Below are positions 1,184-18,493 of a stretch of 64,000 bases of DNA, in pieces. The notes under the pieces are model-generated. The model worked only from the letters and a program-made list of their open reading frames with translations. It was not told the DNA's origin and searched no databases. Position 1 is the stretch's first letter; the number at the start of each line of letters is the position of its first letter. The stretch lies in assembly GCF_003334405.1 (NCBI RefSeq), contig NZ_QOWM01000003.1. One strand, given 5' to 3'. A program made the position numbers and the translations under genes. This DNA comes from Escherichia coli. Lineage in GTDB: Bacteria; Pseudomonadota; Gammaproteobacteria; Enterobacterales; Enterobacteriaceae.

Positions 1184-1243
1184 AATATAGCCTAAGCTAT
1201 GTCTGATTATTAAAAATACACTAAACATAGCTTTGGCTAAATT
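1184..1243 (-). promoter_or_regulatory. Candidate MntR operator palindromes in the mntP promoter region
   Basis: ATAGC-N4-GCTAT palindrome at 1187..1200 and CATAGC-N4-GCTAA at 1225..1240, resembling MntR boxes; AT-rich region upstream of the riboswitch. Confidence 0.4.
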
Positions 1244-3489: not shown

Positions 3490-4461
3490 TTACTTATCGA
3501 TTTTGCTGATCAGATCCATCATTTTCAGTTTCGGATCGGTGGAAACCTTACGGACTTCCAGCTCAATACCGCGCGCATTCAGTTTCTTGAACGCCTCGAT
3601 ATCTTTTTCATCAACCGAAACCGCGTTATTCACCTGGGTTTTACCCTGACGGAATGCCATACCACCGACGTTAACAGAGGTGATTTTCACGCCGCCTTCA
3701 ACGAGACGCTCTACATCTGTTGGGTTGGTAAATAACAGCATTACGCGTTCGCCAGCATATTTCGGGTTGTTGTAGACGCGAATCATTTTGGCAACATCAA
3801 CTACGTGTGCTGTTACGCCCGGAGGTGCAACCTGGGTGAGCAGTGTCTTACGAACGGTATCCGCAGCCACTTCATCACTAACAACAATAATACGGGAGAC
3901 ATTGGTTTCTTTGGTCCAGCGGGTGGCGACCTGACCGTGAATCAGACGGTCGTCGATACGCGCAAGGCCAATAACCATGTAGTCGTTTGGCCCCATTGGT
4001 TTTGCCGGAGTTGGAGCCGCTTTTGGTGCTGCGGCAGCGGGTGCTGGCGCGGCTTTTTCAACCGGTTTGGCTTTCAGTGCTTTCACGCCTTCACGGCCTG
4101 TTTCTACTGCCAGTGCCACCAGTTCATCAAAGCTTGGGTCATCATCACGGGCCATTAACGTTTCCACGAGCATTGGAATGTTAACGCCTGCAATGACTTC
4201 ATAATGCTCTTTGTCGACGACAATGCGGCTGGCAGCATTGAACGGGCTGCCTCCCCATGTATCAACGAGAAACAGCACGCCTTTAGTGGTGTCGAGTTTT
4301 GCCAACTGAGCGTTGTACTTTTCAATCAGCGTTTCGGCATTTTCACCTGGAACGAAATCGATCCAGCCGACGTTTTCCTGCTCGCCTAACAGCATTTCTG
4401 CCGTTTTAAGCAACTGCTCTGCAGCCCAACCATGTGTGCCTATAACAATAGCAATGGTCAC
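3490..4461 (-). CDS. manX: Mannose PTS enzyme IIAB component
   Basis: ORF track 323 aa starting MTIAIVIGTHGWAAEQ; Ala/Pro-rich linker between IIA and IIB domains visible (PAPAAAAPKAAPTPAKP). Confidence 0.95.
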   Translation of the reverse strand: MTIAIVIGTHGWAAEQLLKTAEMLLGEQENVGWIDFVPGENAETLIEKYNAQLAKLDTTKGVLFLVDTWGGSPFNAASRIVVDKEHYEVIAGVNIPMLVETLMARDDDPSFDELVALAVETGREGVKALKAKPVEKAAPAPAAAAPKAAPTPAKPMGPNDYMVIGLARIDDRLIHGQVATRWTKETNVSRIIVVSDEVAADTVRKTLLTQVAPPGVTAHVVDVAKMIRVYNNPKYAGERVMLLFTNPTDVERLVEGGVKITSVNVGGMAFRQGKTQVNNAVSVDEKDIEAFKKLNARGIELEVRKVSTDPKLKMMDLISKIDK

Positions 4462-4923
4462 TTGCTACCTCCTTTATTATCGTTAACACCTCAACGTGCC
4501 AGATGTATTTTTGAATCGTCGTCCACAATCGAATCGATTCAGATAAGGGCTACAACCAAAAACCCCTGCGTTTCGCGATTTATTTTAGATATCGAAAAAA
4601 TTATTTTATGTGATGAAGATCCGTAATTTAACTTTCGATTAGCAGAAATTTCGAAAGGTAAAATATCCTTGTCACATTCGTTTGCAAAGGAAGGTAAATC
4701 TTTGCCAAATCAGAGGCGTCTCTGATATGTTTAACTCCCGTTTAACAACCATGGAGTATAGGGCAGTAGCCCGCAGTATGGATCGTCACCGACGTCATTT
4801 CAGCATCAGGCCTTTTAACGCCTGCCTTTCTGGCACTCTATGCCGCACCTTTCGTTTGCATTTTGTCGTTACGCCTGCATTATTTCTGGCGTCGAATAGC
4901 TATTCCTTAAGCAGGAGCTTGTC

Positions 4924-6480
4924 ATGGAATTCTTAATGGACCCCTCAATTTGGGCGGGGCTACTCACGCTTGTTGTTCTCGAAATTGTGCTGGGTATCGA
5001 TAACCTGGTCTTCATCGCCATTCTTGCTGACAAACTGCCGCCAAAACAACGCGATAAAGCGCGTTTGCTGGGGTTATCACTGGCGCTGATTATGCGTCTG
5101 GGGCTGCTGTCGCTGATTTCATGGATGGTCACGCTGACCAAACCGCTATTTACCGTCATGGATTTCTCCTTCTCCGGACGCGACCTGATTATGTTGTTCG
5201 GGGGGATATTCTTGCTGTTCAAAGCAACAACCGAACTGCATGAACGGCTGGAAAACCGCGATCATGATTCCGGCCACGGTAAAGGCTACGCCAGTTTCTG
5301 GGTGGTCGTCACACAGATTGTCATCCTTGACGCCGTCTTCTCGTTGGATGCGGTAATTACTGCAGTAGGGATGGTTAACCATCTGCCGGTGATGATGGCG
5401 GCGGTAGTGATTGCGATGGCGGTTATGTTGCTGGCATCCAAACCGCTGACGCGATTCGTTAACCAGCACCCCACGGTGGTGGTGCTCTGTCTGAGCTTCC
5501 TGTTAATGATTGGTCTGAGTCTGGTGGCAGAAGGTTTCGGTTTCCACATTCCGAAAGGTTACCTGTATGCCGCGATTGGCTTCTCGATCATCATCGAAGT
5601 GTTTAACCAGATTGCGCGTCGCAACTTTATTCGCCACCAGTCGACTTTGCCGCTGCGAGCGCGTACTGCCGATGCCATCCTGCGTTTGATGGGCGGGAAA
5701 CGTCAGGCCAATGTTCAGCACGATGCCGATAACCCGATGCCGATGCCGATCCCGGAAGGTGCATTTGCCGAAGAAGAACGTTACATGATTAACGGCGTAC
5801 TGACGCTGGCGTCGCGTTCTCTGCGCGGGATCATGACGCCGCGCGGTGAAATAAGCTGGGTTGACGCTAATCTCGGGGTCGATGAAATCCGCGAGCAACT
5901 GCTCTCTTCACCGCACAGTCTGTTCCCGGTATGTCGCGGTGAACTGGATGAAATCATCGGTATTGTACGTGCTAAAGAACTGCTGGTGGCGCTGGAAGAG
6001 GGCGTTGATGTGGCGGCGATTGCTTCGGCGTCTCCGGCGATTATCGTCCCGGAAACCCTCGATCCGATCAACCTGTTGGGCGTGCTGCGTCGTGCTCGCG
6101 GGAGCTTTGTTATCGTGACCAACGAGTTTGGTGTGGTACAAGGTCTGGTCACGCCGCTGGATGTGCTGGAAGCCATTGCGGGTGAATTCCCGGACGCTGA
6201 CGAAACGCCGGAAATCATTACTGATGGTGACGGCTGGCTGGTAAAAGGCGGTACAGATTTGCATGCCTTGCAGCAGGCGCTTGATGTTGAGCACCTTGCC
6301 GATGACGATGATATCGCGACGGTCGCGGGCCTCGTGATCTCGGCAAATGGTCACATTCCCCGTGTGGGCGATGTGATTGATGTAGGGCCACTGCATATCA
6401 CCATCATTGAAGCCAATGATTATCGTGTTGATCTGGTTCGCATTGTTAAAGAGCAACCGGCGCACGATGAAGATGAGTAA
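4924..6480 (+). CDS. yoaE: TerC-family membrane protein with C-terminal CBS/CorC domains
   Basis: ORF track 518 aa; N-terminal hydrophobic TerC-like half, soluble C-terminal half; AGGAG Shine-Dalgarno before ATG. Confidence 0.9.
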
Positions 6481-6483
6481 GCG

Positions 6484-8082
6484 TTAACGTAACGGCATAA
6501 TGGGCGTGATATGTCCATTATGCCGGGCGGGCGGCGGTTGGCTGCCCGCCAGCCATTTGGGAAAATCACGTAGCGGCATCGGCTGTGCGTACAAATACCC
6601 TTGCAAAATATGCACGCCATGACGGCGCAAATACTTCGCCTGTTCTTGCGTTTCCACGCCCTCCGCCACCAGTTCAATATTCAGTCTTTGCCCCAGCGCG
6701 ATGATGATATCGGTCACCGTCGAGTTAACCGCGTCAGAACCTATAGCTGCGGTAAATGACTTATCAATTTTCAGCACGTCAGGACGTAATGTTTCAAGCC
6801 AGGAAAACGAGCTGTTGCCGGTGCCGAAGTCATCAATCGCCAGTTTGACGTTTTTACGATGCAGCTCGCGGGCAATCCGATAATCAACATCCAGTAAGGC
6901 ATCGCGTTCGGTGATTTCGAGGATCAGTTGCTGAATCGGGTGAGCGCTAAACCAGTACTGATTGAGATCTTTTATCAGCACACCACGGCGAAAATGGCTG
7001 GGTGCGACGTTAATGCCAACATGAAACTGACTACTCATCGGGAAAACATGGCGCTGACGAATGGTTTCTGCCATCACATAGCGGGTCAGTGGCACAATTA
7101 AATGATGTTCTTCCGCGATAGGAATAAACACATCCGGTGAAATCCAGCCCTGACGCGGATTGTTCCAGCGCAGCAAAATCTCTACACCAATACATTGCTG
7201 GCTGCGCGCATTAAGCAAAGGCTGACAGAACAATTCGAACTCATGTTGCGCCAGGCCCAGATTGATTTCGCGGGAAAAGCTCATTCGGTAAGCGGTCGCC
7301 AGCCAGGCGATGTAGCCCACCAGTAAACTTAGCAGCACCGCCAGCGGTAATTGTGTTGGAAGATAGTGCCATGCCAGCGCCGTAGCCCCCGGACCATTAA
7401 CGTTAATGGTAAAAGGAAAGCGTTGCGAAGAAACCTGATAGTTTTCATTGTCTTCAGGTTGCGGAAGGGAATCTACCAGCCCATTACCATAGAGCAAATG
7501 CCGTTTGTCCACCGTCAGGCTGGCGCTACTGATTTGCGGCAGTTGTGGCTCAAGCAGCATTGCCGTCAGTAAGTCGATGTTAATCATCTCCATGACCCCA
7601 GCATTGCTACTGCCCGCTGCAGGCGTCCATTGAATCAAAACCGGACTGCCTTTAATCAGGGCACGGTCGATCGTCAGGCGTAAAAGTGGTTGCGGTGCAG
7701 GAAGTTCAGCCAGAATGTCCACGACGGGCACATTGCGATAACCAAAAATGCTGGAGCAATAAAGTGTGCCGTCTTGCACCAGGCCAATGGATCGCACAGT
7801 TTGGAGTTTTGCCGCCTGTTTACGTAATGGCAAATGGGCGACAGAGCAGGGCAGACCAATCAGCGGAAGCAAGACTTCGCTACCTGCCTGTAGGGGAAGC
7901 AGTACTTTATCTAATTCCTCTACAGCGTGATTGGCGAATTGTACTACCCGTTGTTGATTTAAGTTACGCTGTGAAATAAATCGCACGCTCAGGGTCGAAG
8001 CGAGCGTAACGAGTGCGCAAATCGTACAAACAATCATTCGATTACGACGATAGGTTTTAATGATCCGTTGTGCTTTTTGCAT
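6484..8082 (-). CDS. pdeD: c-di-GMP phosphodiesterase PdeD (YoaD), CSS-domain plus EAL domain
   Basis: ORF track 542 aa; start moved to second ATG giving 532 aa; EAL-type signature EILLR present; N-terminal membrane-anchored region. Confidence 0.88.
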   Translation of the reverse strand: MQKAQRIIKTYRRNRMIVCTICALVTLASTLSVRFISQRNLNQQRVVQFANHAVEELDKVLLPLQAGSEVLLPLIGLPCSVAHLPLRKQAAKLQTVRSIGLVQDGTLYCSSIFGYRNVPVVDILAELPAPQPLLRLTIDRALIKGSPVLIQWTPAAGSSNAGVMEMINIDLLTAMLLEPQLPQISSASLTVDKRHLLYGNGLVDSLPQPEDNENYQVSSQRFPFTINVNGPGATALAWHYLPTQLPLAVLLSLLVGYIAWLATAYRMSFSREINLGLAQHEFELFCQPLLNARSQQCIGVEILLRWNNPRQGWISPDVFIPIAEEHHLIVPLTRYVMAETIRQRHVFPMSSQFHVGINVAPSHFRRGVLIKDLNQYWFSAHPIQQLILEITERDALLDVDYRIARELHRKNVKLAIDDFGTGNSSFSWLETLRPDVLKIDKSFTAAIGSDAVNSTVTDIIIALGQRLNIELVAEGVETQEQAKYLRRHGVHILQGYLYAQPMPLRDFPKWLAGSQPPPARHNGHITPIMPLR

Positions 8083-8212
8083 GCGGGCCACCCTGTAAGC
8101 GTATGGCGACAAACGCCTGACGCAACAGTGGAAGTGTAGTGGGGAATATTACAGCAGACGAGAAAGCGGGTATAAATTCGCCCATCCGTTGCAGATGGGC
8201 GAGTAAGAAGTA

Positions 8213-16762: not shown

Positions 16763-18448
16763 TTGAAGAAGGTTTGGCTTAACCGTTATCCCGCGGACGT
16801 TCCGACGGAGATCAACCCTGACCGTTATCAATCTCTGGTAGATATGTTTGAGCAGTCGGTCGCGCGCTACGCCGATCAACCTGCGTTTGTGAATATGGGG
16901 GAGGTAATGACCTTCCGCAAGCTGGAAGAACGCAGTCGCGCGTTTGCCGCTTATTTGCAACAAGGGTTGGGGCTGAAGAAAGGCGATCGCGTTGCGTTGA
17001 TGATGCCTAATTTATTGCAATATCCGGTGGCGCTGTTTGGCATTTTGCGTGCCGGGATGATCGTCGTAAACGTTAACCCGTTGTATACCCCGCGTGAGCT
17101 TGAGCATCAGCTTAACGATAGCGGCGCATCGGCGATTGTTATCGTGTCTAACTTTGCTCACACACTGGAAAAAGTGGTTGATAAAACCGCCGTTCAGCAC
17201 GTAATTCTGACCCGTATGGGCGATCAGCTATCTACGGCAAAAGGCACGGTAGTCAATTTCGTTGTTAAATACATCAAGCGTTTGGTGCCGAAATACCATC
17301 TGCCAGATGCCATTTCATTTCGTAGCGCACTGCATAACGGCTACCGGATGCAGTACGTCAAACCCGAACTGGTGCCGGAAGATTTAGCTTTTCTGCAATA
17401 CACCGGCGGCACCACTGGTGTGGCGAAAGGCGCGATGCTGACTCACCGCAATATGCTGGCGAACCTGGAACAGGTTAACGCGACCTATGGTCCGCTGTTG
17501 CATCCGGGCAAAGAGCTGGTGGTGACGGCGCTGCCGCTGTATCACATTTTTGCCCTGACCATTAACTGCCTGCTGTTTATCGAACTGGGTGGGCAGAACC
17601 TGCTTATCACTAACCCGCGCGATATTCCAGGGTTGGTAAAAGAGTTAGCGAAATATCCGTTTACCGCTATCACGGGCGTTAACACCTTGTTCAATGCGTT
17701 GCTGAACAATAAAGAGTTCCAGCAGCTGGATTTCTCCAGTCTGCATCTTTCCGCAGGCGGTGGGATGCCAGTGCAGCAAGTGGTGGCAGAGCGTTGGGTG
17801 AAACTGACCGGACAGTATCTGCTGGAAGGCTATGGCCTTACCGAGTGTGCGCCGCTGGTCAGCGTTAACCCATATGATATTGATTATCATAGTGGTAGCA
17901 TCGGTTTGCCGGTGCCGTCGACGGAAGCCAAACTGGTGGATGATGATGATAATGAAGTACCACCAGGTCAACCGGGTGAGCTTTGTGTCAAAGGACCGCA
18001 GGTGATGCTGGGTTACTGGCAGCGTCCCGATGCTACCGATGAAATCATCAAAAATGGCTGGTTACACACCGGCGACATCGCGGTAATGGATGAAGAAGGA
18101 TTCCTGCGCATTGTCGATCGTAAAAAAGACATGATTCTGGTTTCCGGTTTTAACGTCTATCCCAACGAGATTGAAGATGTCGTCATGCAGCATCCTGGCG
18201 TACAGGAAGTCGCGGCTGTTGGCGTACCTTCCGGCTCCAGTGGTGAAGCGGTGAAAATCTTCGTAGTGAAAAAAGATCCATCGCTTACCGAAGAGTCACT
18301 GGTGACTTTTTGCCGCCGTCAGCTCACGGGATACAAAGTACCGAAGCTGGTGGAGTTTCGTGATGAGTTACCGAAATCTAACGTCGGAAAAATTTTGCGA
18401 CGAGAATTACGTGACGAAGCGCGCGGCAAAGTGGACAATAAAGCCTGA
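16763..18448 (+). CDS. fadD: Long-chain fatty acyl-CoA synthetase FadD (561 aa, TTG start)
   Basis: ORF track 16697..18448; start placed at TTG ([13 protein letters not shown]...) preceded by GAGG 7 nt upstream; AMP-binding signature [12 protein letters not shown] present. Confidence 0.9.
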
Positions 18449-18466
18449 GCGTTAAGTCAGTCGTCA

Positions 18467-18493
18467 GACGCCGGTTAATCCGGCGTTTTTTTT
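18467..18493 (+). terminator. Rho-independent terminator after fadD
   Basis: GACGCCGG-TTAAT-CCGGCGT hairpin followed by eight T. Confidence 0.8.

Follow-up and report, generated by a model that had tools for sequence, protein, structure and literature searches.

Conservation and proposed control of the yoaL leader in the manX–yoaE divergent region of Escherichia coli

The spacer between manX and yoaE (mgpA) is an already characterized, densely packed and ordinary divergent control region, in which yoaL is a real leader peptide gene whose translation is needed for yoaE expression, as others have shown. Our comparative analysis suggests that selection acts only on the reading frame, on a few hairpins of local extent, and on the first six residues of YoaL (MDRHRR), leaving the remainder of the peptide unconstrained. 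We are confident, short of certainty, that a manX side, a yoaE promoter, and coupling of yoaL to yoaE together give the best explanation of the region.

The locus is that of the published yoaL–yoaE work (b4751/b1816; the mgpA leader in Salmonella; VanOrsdel 2018, Weaver 2019, Iwadate 2025), with no difference; relative to that work, we add a conservation map, a promoter logic joined from separate papers, and a candidate mechanism. Cells require yoaE/mgpA to tolerate excess Mg2+ and to survive in egg white, and Salmonella requires it for virulence; a 2025 paper stated that its regulation 'remains unclear'. Joining the published data gives a simple logic that may help, with repression by PhoP when Mg2+ is low and activation by CpxR when the pH is alkaline or the envelope is stressed. 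The selection map (frame, stop position, six N-terminal residues, and three small hairpins) narrows the search for what, if anything, yoaL senses. The locus also serves as a calibration case, insofar as an ORF without an adjacent Shine-Dalgarno in a long leader proved to encode a real leader peptide with an important function.

Layout of the locus

The gene ends, taken from the sequence and the ORF list, leave a divergent spacer of 462 bp (4462–4923) in the window, which is the whole 64,000-nucleotide stretch of DNA analyzed here. The flanking features are:

manX, 3490..4461, minus strand: GTG start at 4461, with an AGGAGG Shine-Dalgarno just upstream (ORF list, sequence, and RefSeq annotation)
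yoaE (mgpA), 4924..6480, plus strand: first ATG at 4924 (sequence and ORF list)
yoaE Shine-Dalgarno AGGAG, 4913..4917, plus strand: 6 nt before ATG 4924

Many E. coli genomes match the window at 100% identity. Several features that the first-pass annotation had described from the sequence are where it placed them: the spacer itself with its length, the AT-rich string (4580–4622) with its TGTGA (4609–4613), the AGGAG of yoaE, and an 84-codon ORF with a TTG start (4682..4936) in the ORF list. The yoaE-side leader is likewise GC-richer, as described, with a GC fraction of 0.45–0.53 for 4720–4930 versus 0.25–0.28 for 4570–4659.

yoaL is a translated leader gene

The 84-codon ORF had been dismissed as spurious, a judgment that does not hold, since its last 52 codons are an annotated gene whose tagged protein has been detected and whose initiation has been profiled:

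yoaL, 4778..4936, plus strand: 52 codons plus TAA; b4751, PF22867; same coordinates in the RefSeq and K-12 annotations

Residues 1–52 of YoaL align to model positions 1–52 of 52 of Pfam PF22867 (hmmscan, E = 1e-40); NCBIfam holds no YoaL model. Tagged YoaL protein has been detected (PMC6001520), the yoaL start codon was revised by initiation-site ribosome profiling (10.1101/511675), and changing that start to a stop codon strongly lowers yoaE-lacZ expression (10.1101/511675), which bears out the earlier suggestion that the yoaE leader may be regulatory. The longer versions of 69 and 84 codons, with TTG 4682 and ATGs 4727 and 4751 as starts, were rejected, as these codons are not conserved and stops lie just upstream of MDRHRR in many genera; ATG 4727 is additionally disfavored by its position inside the predicted –10 element. 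The profiling paper puts the old yoaL start 13 codons upstream (10.1101/511675); here the distance from the 69-residue start to the conserved ATG is 17 codons. A text search of the literature for the operator and yoaL sequences returned irrelevant matches only.

Frame, stop position, and N-terminus are conserved

The comparative set comprised 77 distinct leaders, representing over 25 named genera of the Enterobacteriaceae and drawn from the best 80 loci, all with at least 85% YoaE identity. The yoaL frame is open in 76 of the 77, compared with 15 and 0 leaders for the two alternative frames and 25% of shuffled sequences, which lends indirect support to its translation; all length differences are multiples of three. 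In E. coli, yoaL and yoaE overlap by 13 nt on the same strand (4778–4936 versus 4924), and in 75/77 leaders the stop codon of yoaL is found 10 nt beyond the yoaE ATG. A second in-frame yoaE ATG (4936–4938) overlaps the yoaL TAA (4934–4936) as UAAUG and is present in every one of the 77, as is the arrangement of GGAG, 6 nt, and the first yoaE ATG (77/77).

The peptide itself is conserved only at its start. MDRHRR is invariant except for R3P in one clade (Raoultella), and the changes at the D2, H4, and R6 codons are synonymous only and restricted to sites outside the stem of a small hairpin (H2, below). In the body of YoaL the three codon positions are equally variable and the peptide is not conserved: amino-acid entropy is mostly 2–3.5 bits for residues 7–50, and the length ranges from 40 to 55 residues. 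The C-terminal residues that do appear conserved are so because they are forced by the yoaE Shine-Dalgarno and ATG.

Initiation region and local hairpins

The leader carries a distant Shine-Dalgarno for yoaL and a series of small hairpins:

GGAG, 4753..4756, plus strand: distant yoaL Shine-Dalgarno, 21 nt before the ATG
H1, 4761..4772, plus strand: GGGC-AGUA-GCCC, a 4-bp stem between the yoaL GGAG and ATG; –7.3 kcal/mol, z = –3.4
H2, 4784..4794, plus strand: CGUC-ACC-GACG, over yoaL codons 3–6; –2.3 kcal/mol
H3, 4807..4824, plus strand: CAGGC/GCCUG, beginning ~30 nt after the yoaL AUG; –7.0 kcal/mol, z = –3.2
H4, 4831..4845, plus strand: GGCA/UGCC, optional, missing from clades with a 12-nt deletion; –4.8 kcal/mol
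H5, 4871..4892, plus strand: ACGCC/GGCGU, ~35–50 nt before the yoaE ATG; mean z –0.66, with weaker statistics

The ORF had also been described as lacking a ribosome binding site, but the true start is ATG 4778 and the conserved GGAG lies 21 nt upstream of it. In the 16 seed sequences, G3, G4, and G6 of this element are invariant and A5 is kept in at least 90%, with the same pattern in a 52-sequence alignment. The order of GGAG, 4 nt, hairpin, 5 nt, and AUG is constant in 38/40 species; across 76 distinct sequences 100% of cells in the H1 stem are paired, with length variation confined to the loop (11 or 12 nt). It would therefore seem that yoaL initiation uses the GGAG 21 nt upstream, brought into range by H1. 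The same GGAG is mostly paired in the naked-RNA prediction (mean P(unpaired) 0.26).

Further downstream, the synonymous sites within the H2 stem (R3 CGU and R5 CGA) are invariant, and those outside the stem vary; H2 shows no covariation because its stem does not vary. H3 occurs at the same offset in 40/40 species and shows compensatory changes in all five pairs, with observed values that were reached by 0/500 shuffles in a covariance model. The H4 stem reads GGCA/UGCC here and GGCG/CGCC in other genera, and a hairpin with differing stem sequences is visible by eye at the position of H5 in most of the 40 species. No intrinsic terminator was found in the leader, H5 being followed by no U tract.

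A large riboswitch-like fold of the yoaE leader was considered and rejected. The complete leader is no more stably folded than shuffled controls (z = 0.01 in E. coli; the mean over 40 species is +0.44), and the RNAalifold consensus computed from a MAFFT alignment reached only –10 kcal/mol with 17 pairs. The Rfam scan of this leader that had been proposed returned no family match, whether at gathering score or at E ≤ 10. At gathering score, the 64 kb gave only sroD, which lies elsewhere, and nothing in the manX–yoaE region; at E ≤ 10, positions 4300–5100 gave only three chance-level snoRNA/SECIS matches and no yybP-ykoY, Mg_sensor/mgtA leader, or M-box.

Coupling of yoaL to yoaE

On the proposed mechanism, the mRNA encodes yoaL first, and ribosomes translating it would terminate at the UAA 10 nt inside yoaE, a stop codon positioned shortly after the first ATG with its Shine-Dalgarno and overlapping the second one. 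Coupling may then arise from termination–reinitiation at the overlap, together with shielding of the C-rich, G-poor leader from Rho. The stretch in question is:

Candidate Rho loading region, 4786..4863, plus strand: C-rich and G-poor, in the yoaL body (base composition)

Its C/G ratio of 2.0 falls at the 97.6th percentile of 78-nt windows in the 64 kb, and the 77 leaders have a mean C/G of 1.71 and a minimum of 1.18, versus 0.84 in the yoaE coding sequence. Base composition thus points to a possible role for Rho in the yoaL leader. A literature search for Rho, bicyclomycin, or 3′-end data on yoaE or yoaL gave nothing usable, and one Rho/3′-end supplement had no entry for them.

Unmasking of the yoaE Shine-Dalgarno was rejected as the main coupling mechanism. 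In predicted ensembles from 40 species, the mean P(unpaired) of this element is 0.48 with no common partner, and predicted structure around the yoaE start is slightly below that of shuffles. Coupling of the unmasking type is accordingly unsupported, as the Shine-Dalgarno is not consistently masked.

The yoaL–yoaE promoter and its inputs

A promoter scan and motif searches placed the following elements upstream of yoaL:

yoaL–yoaE promoter, 4702..4731, plus strand: –35 TTGCCA (4702–4707), 18-nt spacer, extended –10 TG-a-TATGTT (4723–4731)
CpxR box, 4684..4698, plus strand: GCAAA-GGAAG-GTAAA, centered at about –47 from the predicted yoaL transcription start; highly conserved
PhoP box, 4728..4744, plus strand: TGTTTA-ACTCC-CGTTTA, overlapping –10/+1, a repressor position (motif scan)

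The promoter and both boxes, which the first-pass annotation had overlooked, are conserved across the Enterobacteriaceae leaders, and the TG-n-TA...T of the extended –10 is retained even where the PhoP box is degenerate. The transcription start is predicted at about 4738. The CpxR box, upstream of the –35, has one mismatch to the direct repeat GTAAA-N5-GTAAA and corresponds to a CpxR-P footprint in Salmonella, GCAAAGAGATGT, which was located about –235 to –262 from the yoaE ATG and accompanied by cpxR dependence (PMC6952189). The PhoP box, TGTTTAACTCCCGTTTA, also has one mismatch, to (T/G)GTTTA-N5-(T/G)GTTTA, and is identical to the site footprinted by PhoP at yoaE in Shigella (PMC5775216).

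The direction of the PhoP effect follows from the Shigella expression data. Deletion of phoPQ raised yoaE 7.14-fold by array and 3.18-fold by qRT-PCR (PMC5775216), and in the same mutant/wild-type comparison slyB (0.41), pagP (0.48), and rstA (0.07) were all down versus 7.14 for yoaE (PMC5775216). These ratios indicate that PhoP represses yoaE in Shigella, with which the position of the box over the predicted –10/+1 agrees. A later paper describes the Shigella yoaE result as up-regulation by PhoP (PMC6952189), which contradicts the mutant/wild-type table of the original (PMC5775216).

Rightward transcription would thus proceed from a sigma-70 extended –10 promoter starting near 4738, activated by CpxR from about –47 and repressed by PhoP through a box covering –10/+1, with the repression data from Shigella and the CpxR activation data from Salmonella. 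Expression of an mgpA-lacZ fusion is induced by 10 mM Mg2+ when the pH is neutral or alkaline, by a mechanism that its authors call unclear. We infer that high Mg2+ and alkaline pH induce yoaE (mgpA) at least partly at the promoter level, through relief from PhoP combined with activation by CpxR.

Alternative readings of the leader

A further layer of control could lie in the 79-nt element 4751–4829 (GGAG, H1, AUG, H2/MDRHRR, and H3), which might be an undescribed cis sensor of cytoplasmic Mg2+ and/or polyamines; we consider this unlikely, and put it forward tentatively. The initiation region and first codons of yoaL would sense the cations (Mg2+ and/or polyamines) directly, itself a doubtful proposition at about the same level. 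High cation concentrations would stabilize H1 or ease codons 1–7, so that yoaL is translated and yoaE is on; at low concentrations yoaL translation would fail, and Rho or missing coupling would shut yoaE off. The element would in this way set the rate of yoaL translation, and hence the level of the cation exporter-like YoaE/MgpA through the stop–start overlap and protection from Rho, independently of what PhoP and CpxR do at the promoter.

The near-invariance of MDRHRR, with H2 frozen at its synonymous sites, is consistent with such a sensor, as is the constant geometry from GGAG through H1 to AUG, with indels in the loop only. The R3P tolerated by the Raoultella clade breaks one H2 pair and counts against it, and H1 is predicted to be so stable (–7.3 kcal/mol) that it may not respond to cations. 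H3, with its covariation support, would lie at the front of a ribosome positioned on codons 6–7, given the size of the ribosome footprint, and the leader has a rut-like composition. A Shine-Dalgarno far from the start is frequent among polyamine-stimulated E. coli mRNAs, which also speaks for sensing. Acidic or proline-rich nascent peptides are known to destabilize ribosomes at low Mg2+, but MDRHRR is basic and unlike that type. Physiology fits as well, in that yoaE/mgpA protects against excess Mg2+ and is induced by high Mg2+, and the authors of that work propose YoaL as the sensor; the PhoP box over –10/+1, however, already explains the high-Mg2+ induction.

It is considerably less probable that YoaL is a small protein with an independent function, such as modulating YoaE or another membrane protein, with the effect on yoaE incidental to the overlap. 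Several small E. coli proteins do modulate transporters, and the N-terminus of YoaL is conserved. The tagged protein accumulates to detectable levels (PMC6001520), but residues 7–50 are without peptide-level selection in a product of 40–55 residues, and it has no conserved hydrophobic segment. The C-terminal conservation is imposed by the Shine-Dalgarno and ATG of yoaE, and what is kept is the position of the stop relative to yoaE. We give hardly any weight to a chance ORF within a riboswitch-like leader RNA, comparable to the yybP-ykoY Mn2+ riboswitch on other TerC-family genes: the YoaE N-terminus resembles the riboswitch-associated TerC proteins YkoY and YjbE, below curated cutoffs, and conserved local hairpins are present, but Rfam gave no match even at E ≤ 10, the whole leader is no more stable than shuffles with a poor RNAalifold consensus (–10 kcal/mol, 17 pairs), frame and stop position are strongly conserved, and the experimentally shown translation of yoaL and its start-to-stop effect on yoaE already contradict it. 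The preferred reading remains that of a leader peptide gene coupled to yoaE under PhoP and CpxR control.

Comparison with known leaders

The yoaL–yoaE arrangement resembles mgtL–mgtA and corL–corA as a short ORF in the long C-rich leader of a cation-transport gene with links to PhoP and Mg2+. It differs from mgtL–mgtA in that failure to complete mgtL at low Mg2+ turns an importer on, whereas yoaL translation is needed for a putative exporter to be on; in addition, PhoP represses yoaE rather than activating it, as it does mgtA, and mgtL does not overlap the downstream start codon as yoaL does. Unlike the mgtL and corL leaders, the yoaL leader showed no proline/acidic motif, alternative stem-loops, or Rfam Mg_sensor match, and its Rho role is putative.

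With a short conserved motif and the rest free to vary, the YoaL sequences would fit the pattern of arrest or sensor peptides (SpeFL, TnaC, SecM, and MgtL). SpeFL–speF, with its ornithine-sensing arrest peptide, combines a conserved His/Arg-rich N-terminal motif, a polyamine/cation-linked gene, and an output through Rho-dependent polarity, and its likeness to YoaL is a lead only. SpeFL requires both a fixed length and a conserved arrest domain at its C-terminus, whereas the body and length (40–55 aa) of YoaL vary, and the HIRRxxH motif of SpeFL differs from DRHRR.

The initiation region recalls the hairpin-bridged, split sites of phage T4 genes 38 and 25, with the yoaL Shine-Dalgarno 21 nt away, a stable hairpin between, 4 + 5 unpaired nt, and length changes in the hairpin loop only. 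A point of difference is that ensemble predictions often pair the yoaL GGAG with other parts of the RNA. At its other end, yoaL is like UAAUG/AUGA overlaps and the upstream ORFs of Weaver 2019 (pssL–pssA, baxL, and argL), in which an upstream stop lies within a few nucleotides of the downstream start; as in those three cases, downstream expression depends on upstream translation. Unlike simple UAAUG overlaps, yoaE has two in-frame ATGs, one preceded by a good Shine-Dalgarno and lying 10 nt ahead of the yoaL stop, the other overlapping that stop.

The manX side

Leftward control of manXYZ, the mannose transporter operon, occupies the manX half of the spacer:

manX 5′ UTR, 4462..4576, minus strand: 115 nt, the published length mapped onto the window, giving a transcription start at 4576
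manX –10, 4587..4582, minus strand: TAAAAT, overlapped by the proximal operator-like box
CRP site, 4606..4627: TGTGA (4609–4613) and TCCGT (4620–4624), center 4616.5; from sequence, conserved in aligned genera
Candidate proximal Mlc/NagC operator-like box, 4579..4601: TTTATTTTAGATATCGAAAAAAT; palindrome I4, strongly conserved, overlapping the manX –10
Distal NagC operator ('man distal'), 4645..4667: center at about –80 from the manX start; reverse complement GATATTTTACCTTTCGAAATTTC, part of inverted repeat I1
Candidate Cra (FruR)-like palindrome, 4528..4541: CGAATCGATTCAGA; inside the manX leader DNA, overlapping inverted repeat I7

The CRP-like site has a perfect left half and a right half, TCCGT, matching at 2/5, for three mismatches to TGTGA-N6-TCACA. 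A scan of the 64-kb window for this consensus at two mismatches gave 32 matches versus 27.9 expected, which is chance level, and the manX site is not among them. The consensus match is weak; the site is credible because it is conserved across the family and centered at –40.5 from the manX start at 4576, near the –41.5 expected of a class II promoter. Plumbridge reportedly found in 1998 that manX depends on cAMP-CRP.

The manX 5′ UTR is 115 nt long (PMC3089445). The sequence at 4645–4667 is identical to the published 23-bp AT-rich palindromic 'man distal' NagC operator, GATATTTTACCTTTCGAAATTTC being given as the NagC operator for yoaE/manX (PMC3098098). By resemblance and conservation, the proximal box at 4579–4601 is similar to the nagB NagC operator (PMC3098098). 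Control of manXYZ by CRP and by Mlc/NagC-type repressors, previously proposed from the TGTGA element, is thus supported by the conserved CRP-like site at –40.5, the nagB-like box, and the published distal operator. We envisage that manXYZ transcription would run leftward from 4576 under a class II-type CRP site at –40.5; of the two Mlc/NagC operators, the candidate one lies at about –15 and the published one at about –80, and the 115-nt leader contains a Cra-like box. The 4528..4541 palindrome is one that we take to match the Cra (FruR) consensus. At this place, GAATCGAT has at least 95% column identity and is among the most conserved blocks of the spacer. In Salmonella, Cra binds the manXYZ promoter (PMC10100716).

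yoaL is a translated leader gene of yoaE

The locus is the known yoaL–yoaE pair, and its control region is already known. Gene coordinates bear out a 462-bp spacer (4462–4923) between the divergent genes manX and yoaE (mgpA, encoding MgpA), and the mechanical ORF list contains the 84-codon frame at 4682..4936 that the first-pass annotation had dismissed as spurious and without a ribosome binding site. Neither judgement holds for the tail of that frame, where 'yoaL: protein YoaL' is annotated under the match in every E. coli record listed, and where a near-invariant GGAG (4753–4756) lies 21 nt before the yoaL ATG, with a hairpin (H1) in between.

Genes at the locus (window positions)
3490..4461, minus strand: manX, GTG start (ORF list, sequence)
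4778–4936, plus strand: yoaL, 52 codons beginning MDRHRR (RefSeq genome and K-12 MG1655, b4751, 1901573..1901731)
4924..6480, plus strand: yoaE (ORF list, sequence)

Over its full length the peptide fits the Pfam family PF22867, 'YoaL' (E=1e-40). Tagged YoaL protein was detected when the annotation stood at 69 aa (VanOrsdel et al. 2018, PMC6001520), and initiation-site ribosome profiling later shifted the start downstream (Weaver et al. 2019, 10.1101/511675). These two studies show that yoaL is translated, and the Weaver study that a stop codon in place of its start strongly reduces yoaE-lacZ, so that translation of yoaL is needed for normal yoaE expression and the earlier suggestion of a regulatory yoaE leader was a sound hunch. 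The 2025 mBio paper on MgpA takes YoaL as a leader peptide and states that the regulation of yoaE (mgpA) 'remains unclear'. The Weaver preprint places the original start '13 codons upstream' of the likely one, whereas the 69-aa ATG (4727) and the conserved, RefSeq-annotated ATG (4778) are 17 codons apart.

Among 5,426 complete genomes of E. coli, 5,424 matched an 801-bp query spanning the spacer (window 4300–5100), almost always with ≥99% identity; one matching place is on a record labelled plasmid rather than chromosome. Downstream of yoaE and convergent with it lies the EAL-domain gene pdeD (6484–8112, minus), intact in K-12; in strain SWYHX138.261ft it carries a frameshift (pseudogene) flag.

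Conservation of the yoaL frame, its first six codons and its stop

Conservation was assessed in the 80 best-matching loci listed by one scan of a genome collection; they represent over 25 named genera of Enterobacteriaceae (YoaE identity 85–98%) and give 77 distinct leaders. From the MDRHRR ATG the yoaL frame is open in 76 of the 77 leaders, compared with 15 and none for the other two frames and 25% of composition-matched shuffles, and every length difference among leaders is a multiple of three. The yoaL stop (TAA in 72, TGA in 5) falls 10 nt beyond the first base of the yoaE start codon in 75/77, and all 77 retain both the GGAG-6 nt-ATG spacing of yoaE and a second in-frame yoaE ATG overlapping the yoaL stop as UAAUG. 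The AGGAG Shine-Dalgarno noted at first pass does lie 6 nt ahead of the yoaE ATG.

MDRHRR is invariant save for R3P in the Raoultella clade, and within these six codons the only nucleotides to change are the third bases of D2, H4 and R6. R3 (CGU) and R5 (CGA) have invariant third bases, which pair together in hairpin H2 (CGUC-ACC-GACG, –2.3 kcal/mol); this points to constraint on RNA structure as well as on the peptide (or its codons). Beyond codon 6 all three codon positions vary equally, amino-acid entropy is mostly 2–3.5 bits, and the peptides are 40 to 55 residues long; to judge from the alignment, the peptide body is without selection.

Two records in the set carry unexpected labels: one titled 'Chryseobacterium sp. 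18061' (L027) has a manX-yoaL-yoaE locus typical of Enterobacteriaceae (YoaE identity 88%), and in a MAG labelled 'uncultured Raoultella' (L014) the flank and yoaL-frame peptide are identical to those of a Citrobacter braakii locus (L015). The source assemblies are probably contaminated or mis-binned.

RNA features of the leader

H1 is a GGGC-loop-GCCC hairpin (–7.3 kcal/mol), and the arrangement GGAG-4 nt-H1-5 nt-AUG is kept in 38 of 40 species, with length change confined to the loop. Its sequence is thereby arranged like a hairpin-bridged Shine-Dalgarno, as known from phage T4 genes 38 and 25. A further hairpin, H3, begins ~30 nt past the yoaL AUG in 40/40 species with varied stem sequences. 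A 79-nt covariance model covering GGAG-H1-AUG-H2-H3 gave one match per locus and one in the 64-kb window (4751–4829, 94 bits). In the model-derived alignment, which is fitted to the model, H3 has compensatory changes at all five pairs, a level of covariation reached by 0/500 shuffles and by no slid control. Support is weaker for the additional local hairpins H4 and H5.

The leader as a whole has no extra stability (z 0.01 in E. coli; mean +0.44 across 40 species), and RNAalifold found little consensus structure in it. Membership of an Rfam riboswitch family was rejected, as a scan of the yoaE leader matched no family; the sole gathering-score Rfam match in the window is the sroD small RNA (18407–18492, plus, 115 bits, full length).

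The yoaE side of the spacer is GC-richer, as first described (0.45–0.53 versus 0.25–0.28 in the AT-rich part). All 77 leaders have a pyrimidine-rich yoaL body (C 33%, G 20%); its mean C/G is 1.71, and that of the yoaE coding sequence 0.84. In this leader the top 78-nt stretch (C/G = 2.0) stands at the 97.6th percentile of the window.

CpxR and PhoP boxes at the predicted yoaL–yoaE promoter

Elements upstream of yoaL (window positions)
4684–4698, just upstream of the promoter: CpxR box GCAAA-GGAAG-GTAAA, corresponding to the Salmonella CpxR-P footprint (PMC6952189)
4702–4731, plus strand: yoaL–yoaE promoter from a consensus scan, TTGCCA, 18-nt spacer, TATGTT with upstream TG
4728–4744: PhoP box TGTTTA-ACTCC-CGTTTA, letter for letter the Shigella yoaE box, listed and footprinted (PMC5775216)

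The promoter region is among the best conserved parts of 78 distinct upstream sequences, its TG-n-TA...T pattern being kept even in genera in which the neighbouring PhoP half-site has decayed, and transcription is predicted to start near 4738. In Salmonella, egg-white induction of yoaE is 5-fold lower without cpxR (PMC6952189). In Shigella, mutant/wild-type ratios for yoaE are 7.14 (array) and 3.18 (qRT-PCR), compared with 0.41, 0.48 and 0.07 for the PhoP-activated genes slyB, pagP and rstA (PMC5775216). Since yoaE rises while PhoP-activated genes fall, these data indicate that PhoP represses yoaE, in agreement with the position of the box over –10/+1. The later Salmonella paper (PMC6952189) nevertheless cites the Shigella work as 'directly upregulated by PhoP', against the ratio of 7.14. 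Elsewhere in the window, one-mismatch matches to the PhoP box occur at 1211–1227 (minus) and 40017–40033 (plus); the latter, TGTTTAAGGAATGATTA, is listed under mipA among the Shigella PhoP boxes.

The Cpx system responds to alkaline pH, and its activation under such conditions, together with PhoP derepression at high Mg2+, would account for the induction of mgpA-lacZ. That induction, by 10 mM Mg2+ at neutral or alkaline pH, is described in the 2025 MgpA paper, whose passages on the high-Mg2+ effect apparently do not invoke PhoP.

In one complete E. coli genome (NZ_CP042336.1, strain GZ04-0086; L083, 698–1465), a 768-bp IS1A is inserted in the spacer with a 9-bp target duplication equal to window 4688–4696. 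It separates the CpxR box from the promoter and may have altered regulation of yoaE and/or manX.

A possible coupling mechanism

Ribosomes ending yoaL at its UAA would be delivered onto the yoaE start, where reinitiation could occur at the stop-overlapping ATG or at the first ATG, which lies 10 nt upstream and is preceded by a good Shine-Dalgarno. Ribosomes translating yoaL would also cover the rut-like C-rich leader and so block Rho termination before yoaE. A mechanism in which a masked yoaE ribosome binding site is set free is unsupported: predicted pairing across 40 species gave its Shine-Dalgarno no consistent partner, and the start region has, if anything, less structure than shuffles. 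Under the coupling model the regulated step is most likely yoaL initiation or early elongation, because all sequence conservation falls there. It seems unlikely that this step acts as a sensor of Mg2+, polyamines or another signal, because the PhoP box already accounts for the Mg2+ response.

The pair works like translationally coupled overlapping genes, and resembles mgtL-mgtA and corL-corA as a leader-ORF system of a cation transporter. It differs from these two in sign, in that yoaL translation switches the downstream gene on, and in that PhoP represses yoaE instead of activating. The His/Arg-rich N-terminal motif of SpeFL resembles that of YoaL and is offered as a lead only.

The manX half of the spacer

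manX is reported to depend on cAMP-CRP and Mlc (Plumbridge 1998). Counting back the published 5′ UTR of 115 nt (PMC3089445) puts the minus-strand start of manX transcription at 4576.

Elements of the manX half (window positions)
4587..4582, minus strand: manX –10 TAAAAT (sequence)
4609–4613: TGTGA of a CRP-like site, TGTGA-N6-TCCGT, centred at –40.5 from the manX start (sequence, conservation)
4645–4667: NagC 'man distal' operator, the reverse complement equalling the published operator (PMC3098098)
4579–4601: candidate proximal Mlc/NagC box overlapping the manX –10 (resemblance, conservation)

The AT-rich string singled out at first pass maps to 4580–4622 and includes the TGTGA. With three mismatches the CRP site is weak by sequence, and two-mismatch matches occur in the window at chance frequency; it is almost invariant across 29 genomes of many genera. 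Together with the published NagC operator, this conserved though weak CRP-like site is consistent with the proposed CRP and Mlc-type control of manXYZ. The box at 4579–4601 is a candidate proximal Mlc/NagC site because it is similar to the listed nagB operator (PMC3098098) and is just as conserved. In the DNA encoding the manX 5′ UTR, the palindrome CGAATCGATTCAGA (4528–4541) ranks with the best-conserved stretches of the spacer in the genera compared and resembles a Cra (FruR) operator; in Salmonella, Cra has been reported bound at the manXYZ promoter (PMC10100716).
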